Source: Escherichia phage vB_EcoM_ESCO47
DNA: 64,000 bases
Sequence record: OM386662.1
Direction: 5' to 3' (one strand)
Shown piece by piece: positions 4,323 through 55,939 of this stretch; positions within the stretch are counted from its first letter, which is position 1; every line of letters starts with the position of its first letter. The position numbers and the translations under genes were made by a program. The notes under the pieces are model-generated. The model did no database searches. It saw nothing but the letters and a program-made list of their open reading frames with translations, and was not told where the DNA came from.

Positions 4323-5305
4323 GAACTGTTATGAAGGGCTATTTTGGCTCACATCTTTATGGAACTAGTACGCCAGAATCTGACGTTGATTTTAAAGAAA
4401 TTTATGTCCCTCATGCTCGTGATATCTTGACCGGTAACGTTAAAGAACATATGAGCAAGAACACGAATAACACATCTTCTAAGAACACAAAAGACGACGT
4501 GGACCATGAGTTGTATAGTCTCAAATATTTCTTTAAACTAGCTGCGGACGGCGAAACCGTCGCATTAGATATGCTTCACACTCCACAAAGTCTAGTAGTT
4601 AAATCTGATTTGCCTGATGTATGGAAGTATATTCAAGATAACAGGTCTCGTTTCTATACAACTAACATGAAATCTTATTTAGGGTATGTCCGTAAGCAAG
4701 CTTCCAAATATGGTGTTAAGGGTTCTCGATTGGCTGTTCTTCGTCAAGCCCTTAAACGTTCTAATGAACGGGGACAATACTTTGATAATGGTGCAGTAAT
4801 TCGTTTATCACATATGAAGAATGTTCTGCCTGTAGGTGAATTTGCTTCGTGGGTTGAAACCGAAAACGAGAAAACAGGTAAGCAAACATTCTATAATCTG
4901 TTAGACCGTAAATTCCAAGACACGTTAACCAATAAAGAGTTCAATGCCATCCTGGTTAAACTGGAAGAGAACTATGGTGAACGTGCTCGTAAGGCGGAAG
5001 CCAACGAAGGTATTGACTGGAAAGCATTGAGTCATGCATGTCGTGGTGGACTTCAACTATTGGAAATTTACAAAACCGGCGACCTGGTTTACCCACTTCA
5101 GGATGCTCCATTTATTCTCGATGTTAAGCTTGGTAAACATACATTTAAAACTGTACAAGAATTCCTAGAAGATATCGTTGACCAAGTTGAACAAGCATCA
5201 GAACAAGCCGCTAAGAACGGTATGCAACAAAAAGTAGATATGAGTTTCTGGGATGATTTCCTTGAGCAAGTCTATCTCGAAAATCATAATTCTTACTATA
5301 AATAG
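4319..5305 (+). CDS. Predicted Pol-beta-fold nucleotidyltransferase-like protein
   Basis: GSHLYGTSTPESDVDF matches the hG[GS]...D.D minimal nucleotidyltransferase motif. Confidence 0.45.
   Translation: MRTVMKGYFGSHLYGTSTPESDVDFKEIYVPHARDILTGNVKEHMSKNTNNTSSKNTKDDVDHELYSLKYFFKLAADGETVALDMLHTPQSLVVKSDLPDVWKYIQDNRSRFYTTNMKSYLGYVRKQASKYGVKGSRLAVLRQALKRSNERGQYFDNGAVIRLSHMKNVLPVGEFASWVETENEKTGKQTFYNLLDRKFQDTLTNKEFNAILVKLEENYGERARKAEANEGIDWKALSHACRGGLQLLEIYKTGDLVYPLQDAPFILDVKLGKHTFKTVQEFLEDIVDQVEQASEQAAKNGMQQKVDMSFWDDFLEQVYLENHNSYYK
5297..5304 (+). promoter_or_regulatory. Late-promoter-like TATAAATA box
   Basis: Exact TATAAATA about 29 nt upstream of ATG 5333. Confidence 0.3.
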
Positions 5306-5712: not shown

Positions 5713-6714
5713 ATGAGTAAATTGGAGAATAAAATGTTCAACGTTCAAATCAAAAAAGGTATCTATCGTAATAACGAAATCTCTGGTTCTTATGTCGCCA
5801 CAAAGACCTGGTTCCCGGCAAAGCTTAATCCTGAGTGTTCTCACCTCGGTGATGGTAAAGTTTTCATTATGATTGATGGTTCTGAACGTGGAGTATGGGT
5901 CTTTAAATCAGATATCGTTATGGAAGGAGTTGAGACCTCTCCAGTTACAGTTGTTGAAAGCAACGAAGACATGAAAACTCGTATCAATAAACGCTTTAAA
6001 GTAATGAATATGATGACGAATGGCATTATCAATGGCAAAATTCGTTCACTCATTATTTCAGGTGCAGCTGGTATTGGTAAAACGTATTCTCTGGATAAAG
6101 CACTTAATAACGCTAATGATAATGGTTTCATCAAATACAAAAGCATTAATGGTAAAATCTCTGGTATTGGCCTTTACGAACAACTTTGGCTCAACCGTGA
6201 TGCAGACAGCGTTCTCTTAATCGACGACGTTGATGTATTCTCAGATATGGACATCTTGAACCTTCTTAAAGCAGCATTAGATACTGGTGATAAACGCAAA
6301 GTTTGTTGGAGCACTGCGTCATCTTATCTCGATGATAAGGGTATTGATAAAGAATTTGAGTTTGAAGGTACTATCGTTTTCATTACAAACGTTGATATCG
6401 ATAAAGAGTTAGAACGCGGTTCGAAACTTGCTCCACACCTTCAGGCTTTAGTATCTCGTTCAGTGTATCTTGACCTTGGAGTACACTCTAATGAAGAGAT
6501 TATGGTTCGAGTTGAAGATGTAATATTATCTACTGACATGATGCAGAAACGTGGTCTGACTGATGCAGAAACGTATAAAGCATTATCTTGGATGAAGGCT
6601 AACGTATCTCGTCTTCGCAATGTATCATTACGTACGGCTCTTTATGTAGCAGATTTTATTTCAACTGATAAAGATGGTTGGGAGGAAATCTCTGAAGTAA
6701 CTTTACTGAAATAA
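5713..6714 (+). CDS. P-loop ATPase (AAA-like)
   Basis: Walker A GAAGIGKT and Walker-B-like LLIDDVD. Confidence 0.55.
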   Translation: MSKLENKMFNVQIKKGIYRNNEISGSYVATKTWFPAKLNPECSHLGDGKVFIMIDGSERGVWVFKSDIVMEGVETSPVTVVESNEDMKTRINKRFKVMNMMTNGIINGKIRSLIISGAAGIGKTYSLDKALNNANDNGFIKYKSINGKISGIGLYEQLWLNRDADSVLLIDDVDVFSDMDILNLLKAALDTGDKRKVCWSTASSYLDDKGIDKEFEFEGTIVFITNVDIDKELERGSKLAPHLQALVSRSVYLDLGVHSNEEIMVRVEDVILSTDMMQKRGLTDAETYKALSWMKANVSRLRNVSLRTALYVADFISTDKDGWEEISEVTLLK

Positions 6715-29475: not shown

Positions 29476-30108
29476 ATGAAAACCACTCCTATTACTATCG
29501 CAATTGACGCAATCGTAAAGCAAGCTTCATCTCTGGCTACTATGGCTAAAGTAATTAGTCAAAATTCAGCTCGATACAATGCCATTCTTGAAACCTTGCG
29601 ACGTCCTGGTCTGAGTAATTATGAAAGTCGTGTAATTATTACCGGTGTCGGTAAAAATGCTAATATCGCAACTAAAGCTTCTGAAACATTTGCTTCACTC
29701 GGTATCCCGAGTATGTACTTGAACACTGGGCATTATTCTCACGGTGATGCAGGATTCATTGCGCCTAATGATGTGTTGATTCATATTAGTCGTTCTGGTA
29801 AAACTGAAGAAATGATTGGCGTGGCTAAGCATCTTAAAATGATTCGTCCGAACGTCAAACAGATTCTGTTGCATTGTAACCCGGACATTCCACAAGAAAA
29901 TGAAGCCCTTTTTGATTACTCTTTCTGTACAGGCATCGCAGTAGAGGTTGATGAGAATTCTCTGGCTCCGACTATGTCAACTACATTGTTGTTAGCGCTT
30001 ATCGATACGTTTGCTATCAACCTTTCATCTGAACGTGGATTTACCTCTAATGACTTCCTTAAGTTCCACCCTGGTGGTGCACTAGGTGCCATGTTACGAG
30101 GCGAATAA
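29476..30108 (+). CDS. SIS-domain sugar-phosphate isomerase, KdsD/GutQ-like (putative arabinose-5-phosphate isomerase)
   Basis: VIITGVGKNANIATKASETFASLG...HGDAGFI...ISRSGKTEE...LAPT.STT...HPGGALG parallels the KdsD SIS domain; no CBS domains. Confidence 0.65.
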   Translation: MKTTPITIAIDAIVKQASSLATMAKVISQNSARYNAILETLRRPGLSNYESRVIITGVGKNANIATKASETFASLGIPSMYLNTGHYSHGDAGFIAPNDVLIHISRSGKTEEMIGVAKHLKMIRPNVKQILLHCNPDIPQENEALFDYSFCTGIAVEVDENSLAPTMSTTLLLALIDTFAINLSSERGFTSNDFLKFHPGGALGAMLRGE

Positions 30109-30292: not shown

Positions 30293-31978
30293 ATGAAAAA
30301 AGCTGTTATTCTTGGTGCTGGACTGGCAACTCGTTTGTATCCAATAACGCATCATATTCCTAAGGTGCTTGTTAACTATAAACAAGACACTATTCTGAGC
30401 AATTTGTATACAATTTATTCTGATCTTGGCGCAGACGAAATTATTGTAGTAGTTCATTCAAAATTTGCTGAAACTGTTCGAGCTTATTGTGAGCAAGAAG
30501 GGTTCAATGTGACTATTCGTACAGTTGATGAAGCGTATGGATCTGCTTATGCTCTTGCTAAATTACACAAAGATTTAGACGGCCATAATGTAATTGTTAA
30601 CTGGTGTGATATTATTCCTGATTTTGGTTCATGGTCATGGAATGTTAACGCAATCTATGTTAAGGGCGACGAATGTCGATATAATTTCGACGGTGAAAAT
30701 ATCACTAACGTAGGTTCAACAGGTGGTAATGTTGTAGGAATTTATCAGTTCAAAGACTGGGAATTCTATATGGGTTCTACCGATGAGGAAATTCATGAAT
30801 ACTGCAAAGGACGTGATTTCGTAGAATTCCTTTACGGCAGCGCATTCAATAAATCAGAGCTTATGAATCTAATTGATTTAGGTGATATGCCTAAACTTGA
30901 AAAAGCTCATGAAGTTCGTGAACTTAATCGTAGTTTTAATGCAGTTGAAATTGGTGAAGAAACTGTAACTAAATTCGCATTAACCGAACAGGGTCGAGCT
31001 CTTCAGAAAGATGAGATTTCATGGTATCTTAAAGTGAAATCAGATTCAGTTCCTCAGTTAGTTTCTGTTAATGAAAATAACTTTGAAATGGAACGCATTA
31101 AAGGTAGGCCGGCATTTGAATATATTAAATCCAAATCAAGTCTTGCTCGTCCACAAATTGTTGATGCAATTTTAGATGCACTGAAATTCAGCACAGACAC
31201 TTATTTTGTAAGTCCTGAAACTGTTCGTCGTGATTTCACTAAAGAATTCTATACTAAAGTTATTGATCGTTGTGAAAGCATTCAACCATTGATTGATTCA
31301 TTTGGTAAAATCACACATGTGAACTACACCAAGATTGGACGTCTGAAGCCAATGCTGAAACAAGCTTTAGAACACCTTATTCGTTATCATAACCGTTCTC
31401 AGGGACAGTACTCTGTTATTCATGGTGACCCGAACTTCAGTAATACTATGATTACTGATAACGGCGAAGTCAAGTTTATCGACCCTCGTGGATATTTTGG
31501 CGAAACCAAGATTTACGGCCCGAAATTGTATGATGAAGCTAAAGTGCTTTATGCTGTTTCAGGTTATGATGAATTCAATGCTAATCCGACCTGGGGGCAG
31601 TTTACTATTGATGAAACAACTTGTAATGTGTCTATTAACATCAATCCATTAGTTTACAAATATGGAAAGATGAGTTCGTTTAACGAGTATCATCATTTGG
31701 CAGTGGCAATTATCTGGATTGCATTAGGTGGTTATTTCAAGAATAATCCACTTAAAGCGGTAGCCGCATATTATAAAGGTATGGAACTTCTGACTAAGCA
31801 ATTACGTAACATGGGCCGTGTACTTCAGGACGGCTCTATTAGTTATGACGTAGCAGAACCTGTAACGGCTACACTGATTACAAAAAATCCTGGTAAATGG
31901 GTACTAACTGATAAAGAAACTGGTGTTTCCTATCGTCCAATCGGTGGCGATATCACTCATCAATGGGAACGAATCTAA
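30293..31978 (+). CDS. Bifunctional sugar-1-phosphate nucleotidyltransferase (N-terminal) / kinase-like (C-terminal) protein
   Basis: N-terminal AVILGAGLATRLYPIT...PKVLV nucleotidyltransferase signature; C-terminal HGDPNFSNTMI...FIDPRGYF resembles the APH/choline-kinase catalytic loop. Confidence 0.6.
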   Translation: MKKAVILGAGLATRLYPITHHIPKVLVNYKQDTILSNLYTIYSDLGADEIIVVVHSKFAETVRAYCEQEGFNVTIRTVDEAYGSAYALAKLHKDLDGHNVIVNWCDIIPDFGSWSWNVNAIYVKGDECRYNFDGENITNVGSTGGNVVGIYQFKDWEFYMGSTDEEIHEYCKGRDFVEFLYGSAFNKSELMNLIDLGDMPKLEKAHEVRELNRSFNAVEIGEETVTKFALTEQGRALQKDEISWYLKVKSDSVPQLVSVNENNFEMERIKGRPAFEYIKSKSSLARPQIVDAILDALKFSTDTYFVSPETVRRDFTKEFYTKVIDRCESIQPLIDSFGKITHVNYTKIGRLKPMLKQALEHLIRYHNRSQGQYSVIHGDPNFSNTMITDNGEVKFIDPRGYFGETKIYGPKLYDEAKVLYAVSGYDEFNANPTWGQFTIDETTCNVSININPLVYKYGKMSSFNEYHHLAVAIIWIALGGYFKNNPLKAVAAYYKGMELLTKQLRNMGRVLQDGSISYDVAEPVTATLITKNPGKWVLTDKETGVSYRPIGGDITHQWERI

Positions 31979-32364
31979 TGCACCGTGTAGAAAACATGCT
32001 TAATCTTTGTTTTGATGTCGATGATTGCATCACGGAATGGAATAACACTCGTGATTACGTGAACTTCAAGCCAGACAGCGAAATGGTGTCTGCTATTAAT
32101 GCCTTGTATGATGCAGGGCATACCATAACGCTTTACACTGCTCGCGGTATGAAGTCGGTAGGTCCTGGTCGTATAGCAATTGACATTCTCCCAAGTCTGA
32201 TTCAGAACTTGGAAAACATTGGTTTGAAGTACCATAATTTGCTAACACATAAACCAGTATATGATTGGATTATCGACGACAAAGCTATGCGTCCTGACGA
32301 ATTCAAAGCTCTTATGAATAAAGGCGAATTCGAAACATTTAAATCATATAAACCTAATCTATAA
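31978..32364 (+). CDS. Small HAD-like phosphatase (putative)
   Basis: LCFDVDDCIT (motif I-like), HTITLYTARG (motif II), YDWIIDDKA (motif IV-like); TAATG coupling. Confidence 0.45.
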   Translation: MHRVENMLNLCFDVDDCITEWNNTRDYVNFKPDSEMVSAINALYDAGHTITLYTARGMKSVGPGRIAIDILPSLIQNLENIGLKYHNLLTHKPVYDWIIDDKAMRPDEFKALMNKGEFETFKSYKPNL

Positions 32365-32421: not shown

Positions 32422-33582
32422 ATGAATACTTTTAAAATCGGAACGAATTTTGATTTAGCTCTTCTTGATAAAATCGTAGAGCTCAATAAAACTTATCCTA
32501 ATAGCTTAATAAACGAAGTATACGGCTCTACAAGAGAAATGGCTTTTGTAGCAGCCAGACCTGATTTTAGGCTTCCTGACGTTGACAAAAAGATGTTAGA
32601 AGATTACGTTAAACGTTGTAACGAATTAGGTATTTGCTTTAACTATACACTCAACACGATAAATCCTGGTTCAAAAAGAGAACTAGTTGAGTGGAAGAAG
32701 AAAGCTATTCAGGATTATGTTCAGTATCTTTGGTCAATAGGCGTATGGCGTATTACTATCGCTAACCCTGTTGTTATGGAAATTGTTCGTGAAGTCAATA
32801 AAGACATTGAGATTGAAGTTTCAACAATTCTACATGTCGATGCTGTAACTCAAATCAAATACTTGCATGACCAATATAATATTAAAAAGGTCTGTTGCGG
32901 AATTCATAAGAACCGTTCAGTTTCTTTCCTGAAGCGTGCAGCAGAGTTTTGCAATAAGAACAATATAATATTTGAAGTTCTTGTAAATGAGTTCTGTTCT
33001 AATGCTGGTAAAGGGTATACAACACATTGTAGTTATCGTGACTCTTGCTATATTTTCCATAGTACTGATGTTACAGTTGATGATGCTAAATCCTTAAACG
33101 GATATCCAATGCAACACTGCATTAAAGCTCGTGATACAGACCCATTTAACTGGTTGAGAACTCGTTTTGTTCGTCCTCAAGATTTGAAACTTTATAATGA
33201 TATTGGTATCACTCAATTCAAAGTTTCAGGACGTACAGGTAGCACAGACTACATTTTGAAAGTTCTTGAAGCATACGCTTCTGAAAAGTTTGAAGGTAAT
33301 TTGTTAGAACTGTGGAAGCCTTTAGAGACTATTTTCACTCTTGAAAATGAAACTGAGTTTTCACATACAGTAAATATTGAAACCTCTTTGTTAGATGGCT
33401 TTTTAGAAAAAAGGTGGTTCAGACATCCAGATTTCGATTGTGCTAATGAAATCTGCGGGACGACGTGTACATATTGTGAAAGATATTATAAACGTCAATT
33501 ATCTAAAAACGGGTTATCAGAAAATTCTATATCTATTATTGATATAACTAACTCTGATGACGCTTTGAGGTACCCGGAATGA
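32422..33582 (+). CDS. Peptidase-U32-family protein (PrtC/RlhA/TrhP/UbiU-like putative Fe-S enzyme)
   Basis: Architecture and blocks ITIANPVVMEIVRE, IEIEVST, IFEVLVNEFCSNAGKGYTTHCSYRDSC parallel the U32 core as I recall it. Confidence 0.5.
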   Translation: MNTFKIGTNFDLALLDKIVELNKTYPNSLINEVYGSTREMAFVAARPDFRLPDVDKKMLEDYVKRCNELGICFNYTLNTINPGSKRELVEWKKKAIQDYVQYLWSIGVWRITIANPVVMEIVREVNKDIEIEVSTILHVDAVTQIKYLHDQYNIKKVCCGIHKNRSVSFLKRAAEFCNKNNIIFEVLVNEFCSNAGKGYTTHCSYRDSCYIFHSTDVTVDDAKSLNGYPMQHCIKARDTDPFNWLRTRFVRPQDLKLYNDIGITQFKVSGRTGSTDYILKVLEAYASEKFEGNLLELWKPLETIFTLENETEFSHTVNIETSLLDGFLEKRWFRHPDFDCANEICGTTCTYCERYYKRQLSKNGLSENSISIIDITNSDDALRYPE

Positions 33583-33818
33583 TTTCTAGAAAAACTTTTA
33601 ACCACCAACTTAATGAAGAGATTTTGACTATGAAAATTAACAGCATCGAACAAATTCTTAAAAAGGCCCTTATGGGCCTGTTTGAAACTAAAGCGGCTAA
33701 AGTGATTAAAGAACCTGTTCAACTAGAATATTACGCTGATGCATTTCTTCATAGTGTTCTTGGAAGTATCGATGCTGAAGCTTTACGTTATATCAACATC
33801 GCTAAGAAATTCAAATAA
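33579..33818 (+). CDS. Hypothetical protein
   Basis: 79-aa ORF (alternative start ATG 33630). Confidence 0.35.
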   Translation: MISRKTFNHQLNEEILTMKINSIEQILKKALMGLFETKAAKVIKEPVQLEYYADAFLHSVLGSIDAEALRYINIAKKFK

Positions 33819-33860: not shown

Positions 33861-34577
33861 ATGGGAAAACATAACACAATGAAATATATCAAAGCCGCAG
33901 ATTTTCAAGCCGCATTTAAAGCAGTCAATCGTGAAATTTTAGAAAACCCGGAATTCGTAACTGATTCTCGTATTGGTCGTTGTAATGAAATTGGGTCTAT
34001 GACAGTAGTTGTTGACACTCCATCATCATTCAAAATGACCGACCCACGTATTAACCGCATCTCTTATGAATATGCCGAAGACTTCTGGAAATTTATGATT
34101 TCTGGTGGTACTGATGCAGAAGAAGCATTTAAGGCATATCCTAACGTTGCTAAATTTATTTCTAAACCAAAATCAGATGCTTTGCCTGCGAACTTCAACA
34201 CTTTCTATGGTCCTCGCATTGCGGCCCAATTACCAACTCTTCTAAAAGAACTTAAAGAGAAGCCTAACTCTCGAAGAGTTGTGTTCCAAATTCTAGAAAG
34301 TTCTGATCAGGCTTTGCTTGATTCGGACGAAACACTTGAATATCCATGTACTGACTCGGTGACTTATTATATTCGCGATGGTAAGCTTTATACCCACTGT
34401 CATATGCGTTCTCAGAACTGTGCTGTTGTTATGCAGTTGGATTTTTATCTCCAAGGAAAATTACTTCATTATATCGCTAACGAATGTGGTGTAGAAGTTG
34501 GTGATTATACTCATACCATGGTAAGTGCCCATGTGTTTGAACGTGATTTTGATTATGTTAAAGGATTCCTTGACTAA
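33861..34577 (+). CDS. 42: dCMP hydroxymethylase gp42 (thymidylate-synthase family)
   Basis: 238 aa; EYPCTDSVTYYIRDGKLY...HMRSQN thymidylate-synthase-like catalytic Cys region; position as in T4. Confidence 0.8.
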   Translation: MGKHNTMKYIKAADFQAAFKAVNREILENPEFVTDSRIGRCNEIGSMTVVVDTPSSFKMTDPRINRISYEYAEDFWKFMISGGTDAEEAFKAYPNVAKFISKPKSDALPANFNTFYGPRIAAQLPTLLKELKEKPNSRRVVFQILESSDQALLDSDETLEYPCTDSVTYYIRDGKLYTHCHMRSQNCAVVMQLDFYLQGKLLHYIANECGVEVGDYTHTMVSAHVFERDFDYVKGFLD

Positions 34578-35476
34578 TGGCTATTTTCCGCGTACCTATC
34601 TTGAGTATGCGGTCTTATGAAACCGGACAGTATGCTATCCTTAAGGATGGCAACTTCCAACTTCATTTGCACCGTGCTAATCCAGGTGATGTGATTACAT
34701 ATCCACGTAATGCATCTGATATTAAAGAATGTGAACGTCTTTTCCCAGAATTTAAGTTTGTTCCATTATGGTATAAAGATAACGCGTATAACACTCGTAA
34801 ATATTTCTGGTCTGAAAATGAATTTGTGGTTGATTCATTAATTGCTTATTATGATTGTGATTTTCTAATCACAGATATCACTGGATATGATGGTGTTTTT
34901 GATGTAGAATTCAATTTCAATATCACTGCAGACCCTAATAAACCACGTTTTTATATTGACGAATTCTTAAAAACCGATATGTTGTCGGTTAATCGTTCAC
35001 TTCAAACTACTGTGTTGAATGAACGTCAAAAAGAAGTGCTGGTTAACGCAGGTGCAGATGGTAATAAGATTATCGTAACGCAGAAAGTTATACGTCCTTC
35101 CATCATGCAGCGTCTTGTAGGTGATTTGGCTCCTATTCATCTAGATGGTATTTTTCATCCATTTCGAATTAGTGACCCGTGCTATCGTTTTGAACAAGTG
35201 GTTGAATGTGCAATTCAATTAGGCCAACCACTTTATATAACCGATCCAAATAATAGCTTCGACAGAAATAAGTATCCTGAAGAAGCGCTGATTCGAATTT
35301 TTAAACCAACTAAAACTGAGTACTATCAAATTCTTAAAGGACGTCCGAAGATTCAATATTTCGAAAATCCTGAAGAAGTATTCCATCCAGGTCTTGGTGA
35401 GTTCATCTACTTTAACGCTTTAATTTCTTCGCCGTATAATATACCTAAATATGAAGATGTCGTAATCGAGGAATAA
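34577..35476 (+). CDS. Unknown 299-aa protein in the T4 beta-glucosyltransferase position (candidate DNA glycosyltransferase)
   Basis: ATGGC overlap with gene 42 stop; no resemblance to T4 beta-gt as I recall it; function inferred from position only. Confidence 0.3.
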   Translation: MAIFRVPILSMRSYETGQYAILKDGNFQLHLHRANPGDVITYPRNASDIKECERLFPEFKFVPLWYKDNAYNTRKYFWSENEFVVDSLIAYYDCDFLITDITGYDGVFDVEFNFNITADPNKPRFYIDEFLKTDMLSVNRSLQTTVLNERQKEVLVNAGADGNKIIVTQKVIRPSIMQRLVGDLAPIHLDGIFHPFRISDPCYRFEQVVECAIQLGQPLYITDPNNSFDRNKYPEEALIRIFKPTKTEYYQILKGRPKIQYFENPEEVFHPGLGEFIYFNALISSPYNIPKYEDVVIEE

Positions 35477-35477
35477 A

Positions 35478-36026
35478 ATGGCTAAAATTATTTTAGTAGA
35501 TGGCCCAGATAATGCTGGTAAAACAACTTTCATTAATGACATAATGGAAATTAGTGAAAGATATGTAAAGATTGATTTCCCTAAACGAACTGTAGATGGA
35601 CGCTTTGATGTTAAGTCTCGAAATGAAGTAGGCTGTTTCGAAACAATGCTAAATTATTTAGACCCTACTAAGATTTATCTGTTAGACCGTGGATATATTA
35701 GTAACTGGGTTTACGGACGTATTCGACAAGATGCGGACTCGGTTCTTGACGTTTATGAACAGGATTATGTTCGTCTTTGCCAAAACCATGATGTGTTCAC
35801 AATTATTTTAACACGTAACGAAATGACTGAAAGTTTTGAAGACGACCTTATCACGTTGTCTGCTCATGGCTTTAATTTTGTTATCTCACTTTTTGAAGAG
35901 TTTGCTGCTCATAATGGAATACAATCTTATCAGTTATTAAACCATGATGGTGCTAACAAAGTTATAGGATTTAATGTAAGTGAACGCAATGCATTGATTG
36001 CAGAAATTATCAAATGGGCTCGTTAA
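35478..36026 (+). CDS. P-loop nucleotide kinase, thymidylate-kinase-like
   Basis: Walker A ILVDGPDNAGKTT and LDRGYISNWVYG resembling the TMK DRY motif. Confidence 0.5.
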   Translation: MAKIILVDGPDNAGKTTFINDIMEISERYVKIDFPKRTVDGRFDVKSRNEVGCFETMLNYLDPTKIYLLDRGYISNWVYGRIRQDADSVLDVYEQDYVRLCQNHDVFTIILTRNEMTESFEDDLITLSAHGFNFVISLFEEFAAHNGIQSYQLLNHDGANKVIGFNVSERNALIAEIIKWAR

Positions 36027-36047
36027 GAGCCTATTTAAAGTTTAAAA

Positions 36048-36072
36048 TGCTGTATAACCTGTAGTATATAAT
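36048..36072 (+). promoter_or_regulatory. MotA-box middle promoter upstream of uvsX
   Basis: TGCTGTA then 19 nt to TATAAT. Confidence 0.45.
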
Positions 36073-36126
36073 CATCCTATCTTTTAAACGTGAGTAAAAT
36101 ATAATGACGCCTATGGAAAAAATACA

Positions 36127-54838: not shown

Positions 54839-55939
54839 ATGAAAGTTATGTTTATCCCATCTCGTGCAGTCCCATTTAATCCTGACCGTGTACAAGGTGG
54901 TCTTGAAGCGGTACATTTAAATGTGTTGAAATATTTAGTTTCTATCGGTGCCGATATTGATTATATCGGTTTTGATAACGACACATTTGGTGATTGGAAA
55001 GTTACACACCATCCTGTTGGCCATCTTACTAAATTCAGTCTAGGTATGAGTTATACTATGGCTCGTAAGATTGTTGAACTGGCCGGCATCCATGAATACG
55101 ATTTTGTTGTTACTATGGAACCGACTAAACTAACCGTTCAGGCAATTAAAGACGCAGGTCTCTCTAAAGTTCATAAGAATTTTATGGCAACACCATTTGA
55201 ACCTGTATCTCGTGGCATTGTTCAAATTTGGGACCAGACTATTCAAATTCATAAGAACGGTGGTAAGAGTTATGCTCCTACTAAAGCCTTCCGTGAATTT
55301 GAACGCAAATATTGTCATATGACTTCAGGTCTGACAGACAAAATTGATTATGATTATTGGCGAGCAAATCCGTTGTTTGAAGCCGAAGATTATCCGGTTA
55401 TTTGTTTGAATGAGAAACCTGAAGTTCTTCCAGCAACTGATCTGATTATTAGTGCACAACGTTATGACACTAAAATGCGTCGTACTGATGTTGCTCTTGA
55501 AGCGATTAAAGCGCTCGGCGAAAATGGTGCAGGATACTGTCCTAGTAAATGGGCACCACCGGCTAAGTATCCAGTAACTATTGATGCTCCACATAGTGAA
55601 ATCATGGAACGCCTTAAAACAGCTAAAGCACTTATCAATACGTGTCCTGACACCGGCACGGTAGAGAATAGTTCTATTGAAGCTATTTCTAAAGGTGTAC
55701 CTGTGATTCAGCTAGTCTTTAAAGATTATCCACATGCTACGTTTGAATATGACCCTGACACGGTACGTGTAGAGATTGATGCTTCCACCCCTAAGAAAGA
55801 AGTAGTTATGCTTTACACAAAAGCTGTATTAGAATTCACTGACACATACGAATCACGAGTCAAACGTGCAGAATATGTATGGCAAAAGTATAATCGGGAT
55901 GCAGTTGTAGCGATGTGGGATAAAATCTTCACAGCGTAA
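54839..55939 (+). CDS. GT-B (GT4-like) glycosyltransferase, candidate DNA hmC glycosyl/arabinosyl-transferase
   Basis: N-terminal MKVMFIPSR...GGLEAVHLNVLKYL and C-terminal ENSSIEAISKGVPVI resemble GT4 motifs; lies between 39 and rIIA. Confidence 0.55.
   Translation: MKVMFIPSRAVPFNPDRVQGGLEAVHLNVLKYLVSIGADIDYIGFDNDTFGDWKVTHHPVGHLTKFSLGMSYTMARKIVELAGIHEYDFVVTMEPTKLTVQAIKDAGLSKVHKNFMATPFEPVSRGIVQIWDQTIQIHKNGGKSYAPTKAFREFERKYCHMTSGLTDKIDYDYWRANPLFEAEDYPVICLNEKPEVLPATDLIISAQRYDTKMRRTDVALEAIKALGENGAGYCPSKWAPPAKYPVTIDAPHSEIMERLKTAKALINTCPDTGTVENSSIEAISKGVPVIQLVFKDYPHATFEYDPDTVRVEIDASTPKKEVVMLYTKAVLEFTDTYESRVKRAEYVWQKYNRDAVVAMWDKIFTA

Follow-up and report, generated by a model that had tools for sequence, protein, structure and literature searches.

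A predicted GT-B glycosyltransferase and a thymidylate kinase-like protein as candidate members of a phage 5-hydroxycytosine arabinosylation module

Two genes between a thymidylate synthase homologue and uvsX

A 64,000-nucleotide stretch of the Escherichia phage vB_EcoM_ESCO47 genome (OM386662.1, one strand, 5' to 3'; the window) contains two adjacent genes between a thymidylate synthase (TS) homologue and uvsX. The first is an intact open reading frame (ORF) at 34577-35476 (+) that encodes a 299-residue protein, here called GT1, a predicted GT-B fold glycosyltransferase (GT) orthologous to RB69 gp46:47 and the putative base-proximal (first, α-linked) 5-hydroxycytosine arabinosyltransferase. 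The second is an intact ORF at 35478-36026 (+) that encodes a 182-residue thymidylate kinase (TMK)-like P-loop kinase orthologous to RB69 gp45 and a putative kinase for C5-modified dCMP, namely 5-hydroxy-dCMP (5hodCMP). This locus is already known, together with its fold assignment and putative functions, from a 2025 preprint, its publication in Nucleic Acids Research in 2026 (PMC13326640) and related papers of 2025-26. Two observations are new here. The kinase travels with GT1 and the 5hodCMP synthase across about 50 diverged phage loci, galactose users included, and its more remote relatives are found beside dCMP-specific TS homologues, with no glycosyltransferase nearby.

The gene order in the window is TS homologue-GT1-kinase-uvsX, and the equivalent stretch of T4 reads 43-imm.1-imm-42-b-gt-segA-uvsX. 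A first-pass annotation, made from the sequence alone, placed the two ORFs in the slot that T4 fills with the β-glucosyltransferase (β-GT) gene, and both the coordinates and the T4 order, with b-gt and segA in that interval, agree with this placement. The TAA of the 238-residue TS homologue ends at 34577 and its final A is the first base of the GT1 ATG (GACTAATGG). A single base separates the GT1 stop codon from the ATG of the kinase (GAATAAAATGG). The stop/start overlap fits the coupling of the 299-residue ORF to the gene upstream that the first-pass annotation described; the name it gave to that gene, gene 42, does not hold, as the product is a 5hodCMP synthase.

The TS homologue (33861-34577, +; PF00303) is the orthologue of RB69 gp48 and the predicted source of the acceptor base. 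Its identity to T4 gp42 is only 24.8%, and where T4 has MRSNDVV it reads MRSQNCA, with the change from Asp to Asn that marks 5-hydroxy-dCMP synthases. The protein matches PDB entries 9iqc/9ir2 from phage HY126 over its full length (E = 1.6e-161). RB69 gp48 has been shown to convert dCMP to 5-hydroxy-dCMP using flavin and O2 (PMC13326640). Judged by signature and homology, the upstream 'gene 42' is a flavin-dependent 5-hydroxy-dCMP synthase and not a dCMP hydroxymethylase. RB69 DNA was earlier viewed as containing arabosyl-5-hydroxymethylcytosine (arabosyl-hmC) (PMC6024577), and it is now known to carry β-D-Araf-(1-3)-α-D-Araf in an ether link to O5 of 5-hydroxycytosine (PMC13326640). The sugar acceptor is 5-hydroxycytosine and not hmC, the acceptor proposed at first pass, because 5-hydroxy-dCMP is what the TS homologue produces and an ether bond joins the sugar to O5. 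GenBank records mostly still annotate the 5-hydroxy-dCMP synthase gene as thymidylate synthase or dCMP hydroxymethylase, and 'gene 42' homologues beside GT1 should not be given the latter name.

The window is 96.7% identical in nucleotide sequence to phage RB69 (Mosigvirus) with the gene order unchanged, and 153 further phage records match the locus at 95-99%. The RB69 counterparts are gp46:47 (ORF047c plus ORF046c) for the 299-residue protein, which is 98-99% identical to the two RB69 halves, and gp45 (ORF045c) for the kinase; those in DLP3 are gp79 and gp78. The glycosyltransferase ORF is intact in the window and split in the RB69 GenBank record (AY303349; positions 5778-6678 of the fetched locus L001), where one extra T at nucleotide 545 gives GTAGTGTG instead of the GTAGGTG found in the window. 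Lee et al. attribute the RB69 split to a sequencing error (PMC13326640). The frame is intact in the window and in the database relatives inspected, among them 180 sequences that cluster at 99% identity and the 45 aligned homologues.

Both ORFs are genuine genes and not chance ORFs because they match PHROG families (GT1 to PHROG 3891, 1e-155; the kinase to PHROG 761, 2e-43), have many clusters of homologous proteins (at least 138 for GT1 and at least 27 for the kinase), recur in phage genomes (GT1 homologues in 348 of 50,697 records, the annotated ones almost always as 'hypothetical protein') and, for GT1, yield a structural model with a predicted local distance difference test (pLDDT) score of 94.8. 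The 100-nucleotide gap between the kinase and uvsX (36027-36126) contains AAATGCTGTATAACCTGTAGTATATAAT, in which a TATAAT -10-like element preceded by a MotA-box-like TGCT was read by eye. This sequence suggests a separate middle-type promoter for uvsX and an upstream transcription unit that closes with the kinase.

Sequence and predicted fold of GT1 and the kinase

GT1 is not recognized by sequence-based family searches. No Pfam family is found at E ≤ 0.1, so it does not join Glycos_transf_1 or Glyco_trans_4, the 120 homologues listed all lack a precomputed Pfam domain, NCBIfam gives no meaningful match, and a 45-sequence profile finds no PDB sequence. The first-pass annotation noted no resemblance to β-GT, and BLASTP with the T4 enzyme gives the same answer, with a best E of 3.7 over 23 residues and no detectable similarity. 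T4 β-GT has 351 residues and an isoelectric point (pI) of 9.05, compared to 299 residues and a pI of 5.1 for GT1. Comparison of GT1 with the second GT of the window returned nothing by BLASTP and an hhalign probability of 0.4%.

AlphaFold produced a model with a pLDDT of 36 from the single sequence, and a usable model (predicted TM-score 0.89) was obtained only from the 45-sequence family alignment. The model consists of two Rossmann-like β/α/β domains with an interdomain cleft, which is the organization of the GT-B fold, and its top Foldseek neighbors are retaining GT4 enzymes. The search for a GT fold proposed at first pass was answered by structure prediction and Foldseek and not by sequence, which gave no match to GT family models. 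GT1 is 8-12% identical in sequence to the GT4 GT-B enzymes sucrose-phosphate synthase (6kih), BshA (6n1x), MshA (3c4q), PimA (2gej) and WaaG (8b5s), and differs from them in having no Glycos_transf_1/Glyco_trans_4 match, no strict EX7E motif and a chain that is ~60-100 residues shorter. The retaining GT4 neighbors fit the α linkage reported for the base-proximal arabinose. GT1 is a predicted GT-B fold protein and very probably a glycosyltransferase of this pathway, and the 299-residue family deserves a glycosyltransferase name in annotation.

Of the first-pass candidate function, a new DNA glycosyltransferase, the glycosyltransferase part is supported by the predicted fold, but the enzyme is not new. 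Lee et al. (preprint 2025, Nucleic Acids Research 2026) made the same fold assignment and named RB69 gp46:47 'arabinosyltransferase 1' as a predicted function, arguing from synteny with the lone GT of the mono-arabinosylated phage Thanatos (PMC13326640). GT1 belongs to the 'arabinosyltransferase 1' group by orthology and by its place beside an Asn-signature 5hodCMP synthase.

The GT1 N-terminal (acceptor-side) domain contains the S10-M11-R12-S13 loop (34604-34615, +), which is invariant in 45 sequences down to 36% identity and which brought back 58 loci when used as a search pattern; with R33 and R74 it makes up an invariant cluster, a candidate phosphate site. GT-B enzymes bind the donor in the C-terminal domain, with basic residues for the diphosphate and a Glu for the ribose or sugar (EX7E in GT4). 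The C-terminal half of GT1 has invariant residues at R197, K246 and H270-P271-G272, and Glu prevails at E275. The roles of the loop and of these residues are presumptive. The acceptor and donor predicted for GT1 set it apart from the T4 α- and β-glucosyltransferases. The T4 enzymes are post-replicative, act on the hydroxymethyl group of hmC and use host UDP-glucose, whereas GT1 is predicted to act on the ring 5-OH of 5-hydroxycytosine with D-arabinofuranose made by phage enzymes.

The Walker A sequence and the DRY-like motif that the first-pass annotation reported in the 182-residue protein are both present, and the TMK motifs align with vaccinia (2v54) and yeast (1tmk) TMK. The Walker A/P-loop GPDNAGKTT (residues 9-17; 35502-35528, +) contains the TMK-type Asp at D11 and an invariant N12 where type-I TMKs have Arg, and HMMER aligns VDGPDNAGKTT of this kinase with FEGLDKSGKTT of vaccinia TMK and IEGLDRTGKTT of yeast TMK. 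FPKR (residues 34-37; 35577-35588, +) corresponds to the FPQR/FPER of type-I TMKs in the HMMER alignment to 2v54 and 1tmk (IDFPKRT with vaccinia LNFPQRST and yeast LKFPERST), and F34, P35 and K36 are invariant in the close kinase family. DRGYISNWVY (residues 70-79; 35685-35714, +), which begins with DRGY at residues 70-73, is the TMK 'DR(Y/F)xxSxxxY' NMP-site motif and aligns with 'DRYVYSGVAY' of yeast; the HMMER alignment pairs LLDRGYISNWVYG of this kinase with VMDRYVYSGVAYS of yeast TMK and leaves vaccinia TMK unaligned.

G9, K15, D70, R71 and Y79 are invariant among kinases down to 17% identity, and D11, G14, K36 and S75 are nearly so. The P-loop Asp, FPxR and DR(Y/F)xxSxxxY elements of the TMK family are all present, and this conserved core, judged from the alignments, is the TMK deoxynucleoside monophosphate (dNMP)-binding signature. 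The Gln of the TMK S..AYQ motif is the thymine-reading residue. G80 occupies this position in the window protein, and the position is variable in the kinase family. An F120-x-D122-D123 motif peculiar to this kinase is invariant in the close family, as is R113, and R99 is nearly so; R113 or R99 is a candidate for the LID Arg, which is the catalytic Arg of type-II TMKs.

A single-sequence search of PDB and Pfam with the kinase returned only P-loop noise. A family profile found weak TMK matches in the PDB, led by vaccinia 2v54 (E = 0.004) and followed by yeast and human, and PF02223 was detected in 12 of 20 family members and not reported for the window protein. The 182-residue protein is a thymidylate kinase-like P-loop kinase by its motifs. 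It shares GxDxxGKT, FP(E/Q/K)R and DRxxxSxxxY with the type-I TMKs (vaccinia A48R, 2v54; yeast, 1tmk; human, 1e2d) and differs from them in the P-loop Asn, the missing thymine-reading Gln, the shorter chain, the F120-x-D122-D123 motif and the sub-threshold family scores. It also differs in being linked to dCMP-modifying TS homologues and not to thymidylate synthesis, with the exception of one Morganella phage described below. Lee et al. predicted functions for the RB69 and DLP3 proteins; the kinase appears there only as a table label, 'nucleotide kinase', for RB69 gp45 with DLP3 gp78 as its counterpart, and a TMK-like predicted fold is reported (PMC13326640).

In T-even phages the established kinase partner of this type of TS homologue is T4 gp1 (RB69 gp159), with the same expected job, phosphorylation of the modified dCMP. 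It belongs to an unrelated sequence family: BLASTP of T4 gp1 against the kinase gives E = 0.23 over 21 residues of the P-loop only. No T4 gp1 homologue was found in the window. The gp1-type kinase is encoded elsewhere in the genome, and the two kinases coexist.

Genomic association of the kinase, GT1 and the TS homologue

A GT-centered scan collected 58 viral loci with GT1 identities from 98% down to 24%, and the 53 with complete flanks were counted; these loci are not phylogenetically independent, and their ORFs were called mechanically as the longest ORFs, which inflated a few overlaps. The kinase is directly adjacent to or overlaps GT1 in ~40 of the 53 loci, in both gene orders (36 counted by script within 60 bp plus 4 with an overlap inflated by start calls). 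In 11 loci it lies elsewhere in the cluster, and 2 loci have no kinase within 6 kb. GT1 has the TS homologue as a direct neighbor in 43 of 53. The GT1-linked TS homologues examined have RSQN or RSNN at the signature position, with one RSQS. A jumbo-phage contig of 355 kb also has the triad of TS homologue, GT1 and kinase, as does L003, a metagenomic myovirus contig of 122 kb. In L003 a Flavodoxin_2 (FMN reductase-like) gene at 4739-5293 lies directly upstream of the triad, which fits the flavin dependence of the 5hodCMP synthase.

The two loci in which GT1 has no kinase nearby are L052 (5452-7107) and L053 (5248-6201). The GT1 homologue of L052 is fused to an N-terminal HAD/KdsC-like phosphatase domain in a 551-residue protein. 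In L053 the protein that follows GT1 resembles a UDP-galactopyranose mutase at its start and has an FAD-binding GxGxxG motif there.

The triad is present in Rhizobium phages P10VF and RL38J1, in which the base-proximal sugar is galactose (PMC13326640), and in many loci the neighborhood contains no arabinose-pathway genes. This ties the kinase to the core of modified base and GT and not to the sugar. In a kinase-centered scan, an Asn-signature TS homologue and GT1 accompany the kinases of at least 26% identity, with the exceptions of L075 and L087; the latter is a contig of 4.3 kb, which is insufficient for a judgment. Nine more remote kinases (24-33% identity) adjoin TS homologues with Asp at the D169- and N177-equivalent positions, the pattern of dCMP-specific hydroxymethylases or methylases such as T4 gp42. 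No GT1 lies near any of the nine. The Asp-type partners without GT1 indicate that the ancestral partner of the kinase family is a dCMP-modifying TS homologue. The co-inheritance of the kinase with GT1 and the synthase, together with the pairing of its relatives with dCMP-specific TS homologues, points to a kinase for modified dCMP (5hodCMP) and not for a sugar. Of the two options offered at first pass, nucleotide kinase or sugar kinase, the former agrees with the TMK dNMP signature, and the latter is disfavored by the galactose phages and the dCMP-specific TS partners.

Proposed pathway and its alternatives

As proposed here, a 5-hydroxycytosine arabinosylation module occupies the gene 43-uvsX region and ends, on its downstream side, with the two genes, GT1 adding the first sugar and the kinase acting on 5hodCMP. 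The probability of this joint statement is estimated at roughly 0.55. The donor would be made by three upstream gene products, an isomerase, a bifunctional kinase-uridylyltransferase and a phosphatase, that together would give UDP-arabinofuranose (UDP-Araf). The isomerase is a 210-residue KpsF/GutQ/KdsD-like arabinose-5-phosphate isomerase (29476-30108, +; RB69 gp55 orthologue) that performs the first sugar-donor step (PMC13326640); NCBIfam kpsF (2e-32) and KdsD (6e-31) match, and the RB69 annotation agrees. The bifunctional protein of 561 residues (30293-31978, +; RB69 gp52:53 orthologue, equivalent to AfhE of HY126) has an N-terminal Pfam NTP_transferase domain and C-terminal APH/fructosamine-kinase-like matches and is assigned to UDP-arabinofuranose synthesis (PMC6024577, PMC13326640). 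The phosphatase is a 133-residue HAD-like protein (31963-32364, +; RB69 gp51 orthologue, equivalent to AfhF; PHROG 1238; PMC13326640).

The acceptor would arise from the TS homologue, whose RB69 counterpart makes 5hodCMP. The TMK-like kinase, having lost the thymine-reading residue, would take 5hodCMP to the diphosphate, which would enter the triphosphate pool and then DNA. After incorporation, GT1 would move the first α-D-arabinofuranose from UDP-Araf onto the 5-OH of 5-hydroxycytosine in DNA, and an unrelated second GT-B enzyme of 366 residues would add the second arabinose. This second enzyme (54839-55939, +; RB69 ORF003c/gp3 orthologue), proposed for that step earlier (PMC6024577, PMC13326640), is located ~19 kb downstream of the GT1/kinase locus and matches PDB 9iqz/9ir0 ('phage HY126 glycosyltransferase with UDP') over its full length (E = 3e-248). 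GT1 probably installs the first sugar: the base-proximal arabinose is α-linked, and mono-arabinosylated Thanatos has only this type of GT (PMC13326640). For the kinase the balance tips slightly toward 5hodCMP as the substrate. The synthase, GT1 and kinase genes, whose stop and start codons overlap or abut, are co-inherited.

Several observations weigh against this assignment. The kinase has an invariant Asn in place of the P-loop Arg of type-I TMKs, and it scores 14.8 bits against TIGR00041, for which the cut-off is 83, without reaching the Pfam or NCBIfam TMK thresholds. The gp1-type dNMP kinase of RB69, gp159, already turns 5hodCMP into 5hodCDP (PMC13326640). RL38J1 has a separately annotated dNMP kinase (gp219) three genes away, a label that is unconfirmed as phmmer from T4 gp1 gave no match to it. 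A plain 5hodCMP kinase therefore looks redundant, and the TMK-like kinase is 'extra' in both lineages. In the T4-like Morganella phage vB_MmoM_MP1 (L075; KX078569, ~19-22.5 kb), the DNA polymerase gene (gene 43) and uvsX flank a 54%-identical kinase, and neither a TS homologue nor GT1 is present within 6 kb; the gene is either left over from the module or points to a use of the kinase outside it. GT1 itself is acidic (net charge -10; family median -12), which is unexpected for a DNA-binding enzyme, although pI is only a suggestive proxy for DNA binding and the presumed DNA-acting second GT is slightly acidic too (pI 6.2). Single DLP3 GTs, including the GT1 orthologue gp79, did not arabinosylate 5-hydroxycytosine-containing DNA (data not shown by the authors), and the authors cannot distinguish addition of the first sugar to the mononucleotide from addition to DNA (PMC13326640). 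Finally, the Thanatos orthologue TH1_063 is reported to be a UDP-xylose pyrophosphorylase (PMC12838424).

The MP1 kinase, found without a TS homologue or GT1, also fits the alternative that the 182-residue protein stands outside the modification pathway as a generic, redundant dTMP/dNMP kinase or as a kinase of a sugar intermediate. PHROG 761 and several GenBank records say thymidylate kinase, and in L006-L008, L012-L016 and L026-L027 the gene adjoins HAD phosphatase and sugar-activation genes instead of GT1. A generic dTMP kinase is difficult to reconcile with the replacement of the thymine-reading Gln by G80, the family's own F-x-D-D motif and a score so far under the dTMP-kinase cut-off. 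A sugar kinase is at odds with the dNMP-binding signature at the conserved core and with retention of the gene beside GT1 in phages that use another sugar and in loci without sugar genes, and the C-terminal domain of the 561-residue protein's counterpart has already been credited with the pathway's sugar-1-kinase activity (PMC13326640). A role outside the pathway is thus considered unlikely.

The apparent redundancy of the kinase has another potential explanation in pre-replicative glycosylation. GT1 would arabinosylate free 5hodCMP, and the kinase would be dedicated to the bulky 5-O-arabinosyl-dCMP, which the general dNMP kinase could not handle. The polymerase would incorporate the glycosylated triphosphate, and bare 5-hydroxycytosine, a mutagenic lesion targeted by repair, would never sit in DNA. 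Whichever of the two comes first, GT1 and the kinase gene abut or overlap in very diverged phages, the GT1 family is uniformly acidic, and its top structural neighbors use small phosphorylated acceptors (sucrose-phosphate synthase, MshA, PimA, trehalose-6-P synthase); the arguments from structural neighbors and from pI are weak proxies. The kinase finds its best PDB sequence match in vaccinia TMK, which tolerates bulky C5 substituents. To our knowledge, all characterized phage DNA glycosylations are post-replicative, following the T4 paradigm, and the pairing of distant kinases with dCMP-specific TS homologues in the absence of a GT is explained more simply by a kinase that serves the TS product. 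The published biochemistry bears on both sides: the kinase is additional to a dNMP kinase active on 5hodCMP, and the GT1 orthologue was inactive on 5-hydroxycytosine DNA in vitro, with the authors leaving the possibility open, but the synthase and the gp1-type kinase alone suffice for ready incorporation of 5-hydroxy-dC into DNA, and the later arabinosyl transfers happen on DNA (PMC13326640). Pre-replicative glycosylation, the main rival of the proposed pathway, is rated as rather improbable.

The report on TH1_063 raises the alternative that the 299-residue protein is a UDP-pentose pyrophosphorylase that makes the donor and that the DNA glycosyltransferase is another protein. His-tagged TH1_063 incubated with UTP, xylose-1-phosphate and pyrophosphatase gave UDP-xylose by liquid chromatography-tandem mass spectrometry, and it did not xylosylate plasmid DNA, dCMP, dCTP or cytosine (PMC12838424). 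The acceptors in that assay had no 5-OH, and the sole control was the omission of enzyme, so a co-purified host uridylyltransferase may account for the product. The predicted fold of GT1 is GT-B and not the nucleotidyltransferase fold of sugar-1-phosphate uridylyltransferases. The cluster already has a bona fide NTP-transferase domain, and UDP-arabinose pyrophosphorylase activity is attributed to its HY126 orthologue in work cited in PMC13326640. A pyrophosphorylase function for GT1 is highly improbable. A 5-HMUDK-like DNA base kinase, which would phosphorylate the 5-OH as a leaving group, was rejected, as glycosyl transfer would need a nucleophilic 5-OH and the conserved residues appear to be those of the TMK dNMP site.

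Two further genes lie between the phosphatase and the TS homologue. The first encodes a 386-residue peptidase-U32-family protein (32422-33582, +; RB69 gp50 orthologue; PF01136, 6e-11) with weak UbiU and TrhP matches and conserved Cys residues that include C340-x4-C345-x3-C349-x2-C352. The second is a 79-residue ORF (33579-33818, +; RB69 ORF049c; PHROG 8601, unknown function) that overlaps the U32 stop codon and precedes the TS homologue, and family searches with it gave no informative match. The O2-independent hydroxylases UbiU/UbiV belong to the U32 family. The family also includes RlhA, which acts in formation of 5-hydroxycytidine in 23S rRNA, and TrhP, which does so for 5-hydroxyuridine in tRNA (PMC5727448, PMC6599085); RB69 gp50 was labeled 'sugar or heterocycle reductase' by Lee et al. 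(PMC13326640). Three distant loci (L050, L051 and L056) have the order kinase-GT1-U32 and a fourth (L054) has U32 ~2 kb downstream, and none of the four has a TS homologue within 6 kb. The U32 protein could supply 5-hydroxycytosine without oxygen and complement the flavin enzyme, which depends on O2. A literature search found no paper that proposes this route.

Arabinosylated 5-hydroxycytosine is a recently recognized and widespread phage DNA hypermodification that blunts restriction, CRISPR and glycosylase defenses, and it matters for phage therapy and for the sequencing of such genomes. GT1 and the kinase are the least characterized steps of the pathway, as they concern the installer of the first sugar, its substrate and the need for a second nucleotide kinase. 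The finding that the kinase tracks dCMP-modifying TS homologues, whatever the sugar and even where a gp1-type kinase is present, sharpens the question of whether the first glycosylation takes place on DNA or on the nucleotide. We know of no pre-replicative nucleotide glycosylation pathway in any virus, and if glycosylation on the nucleotide proved true, it would be the first.

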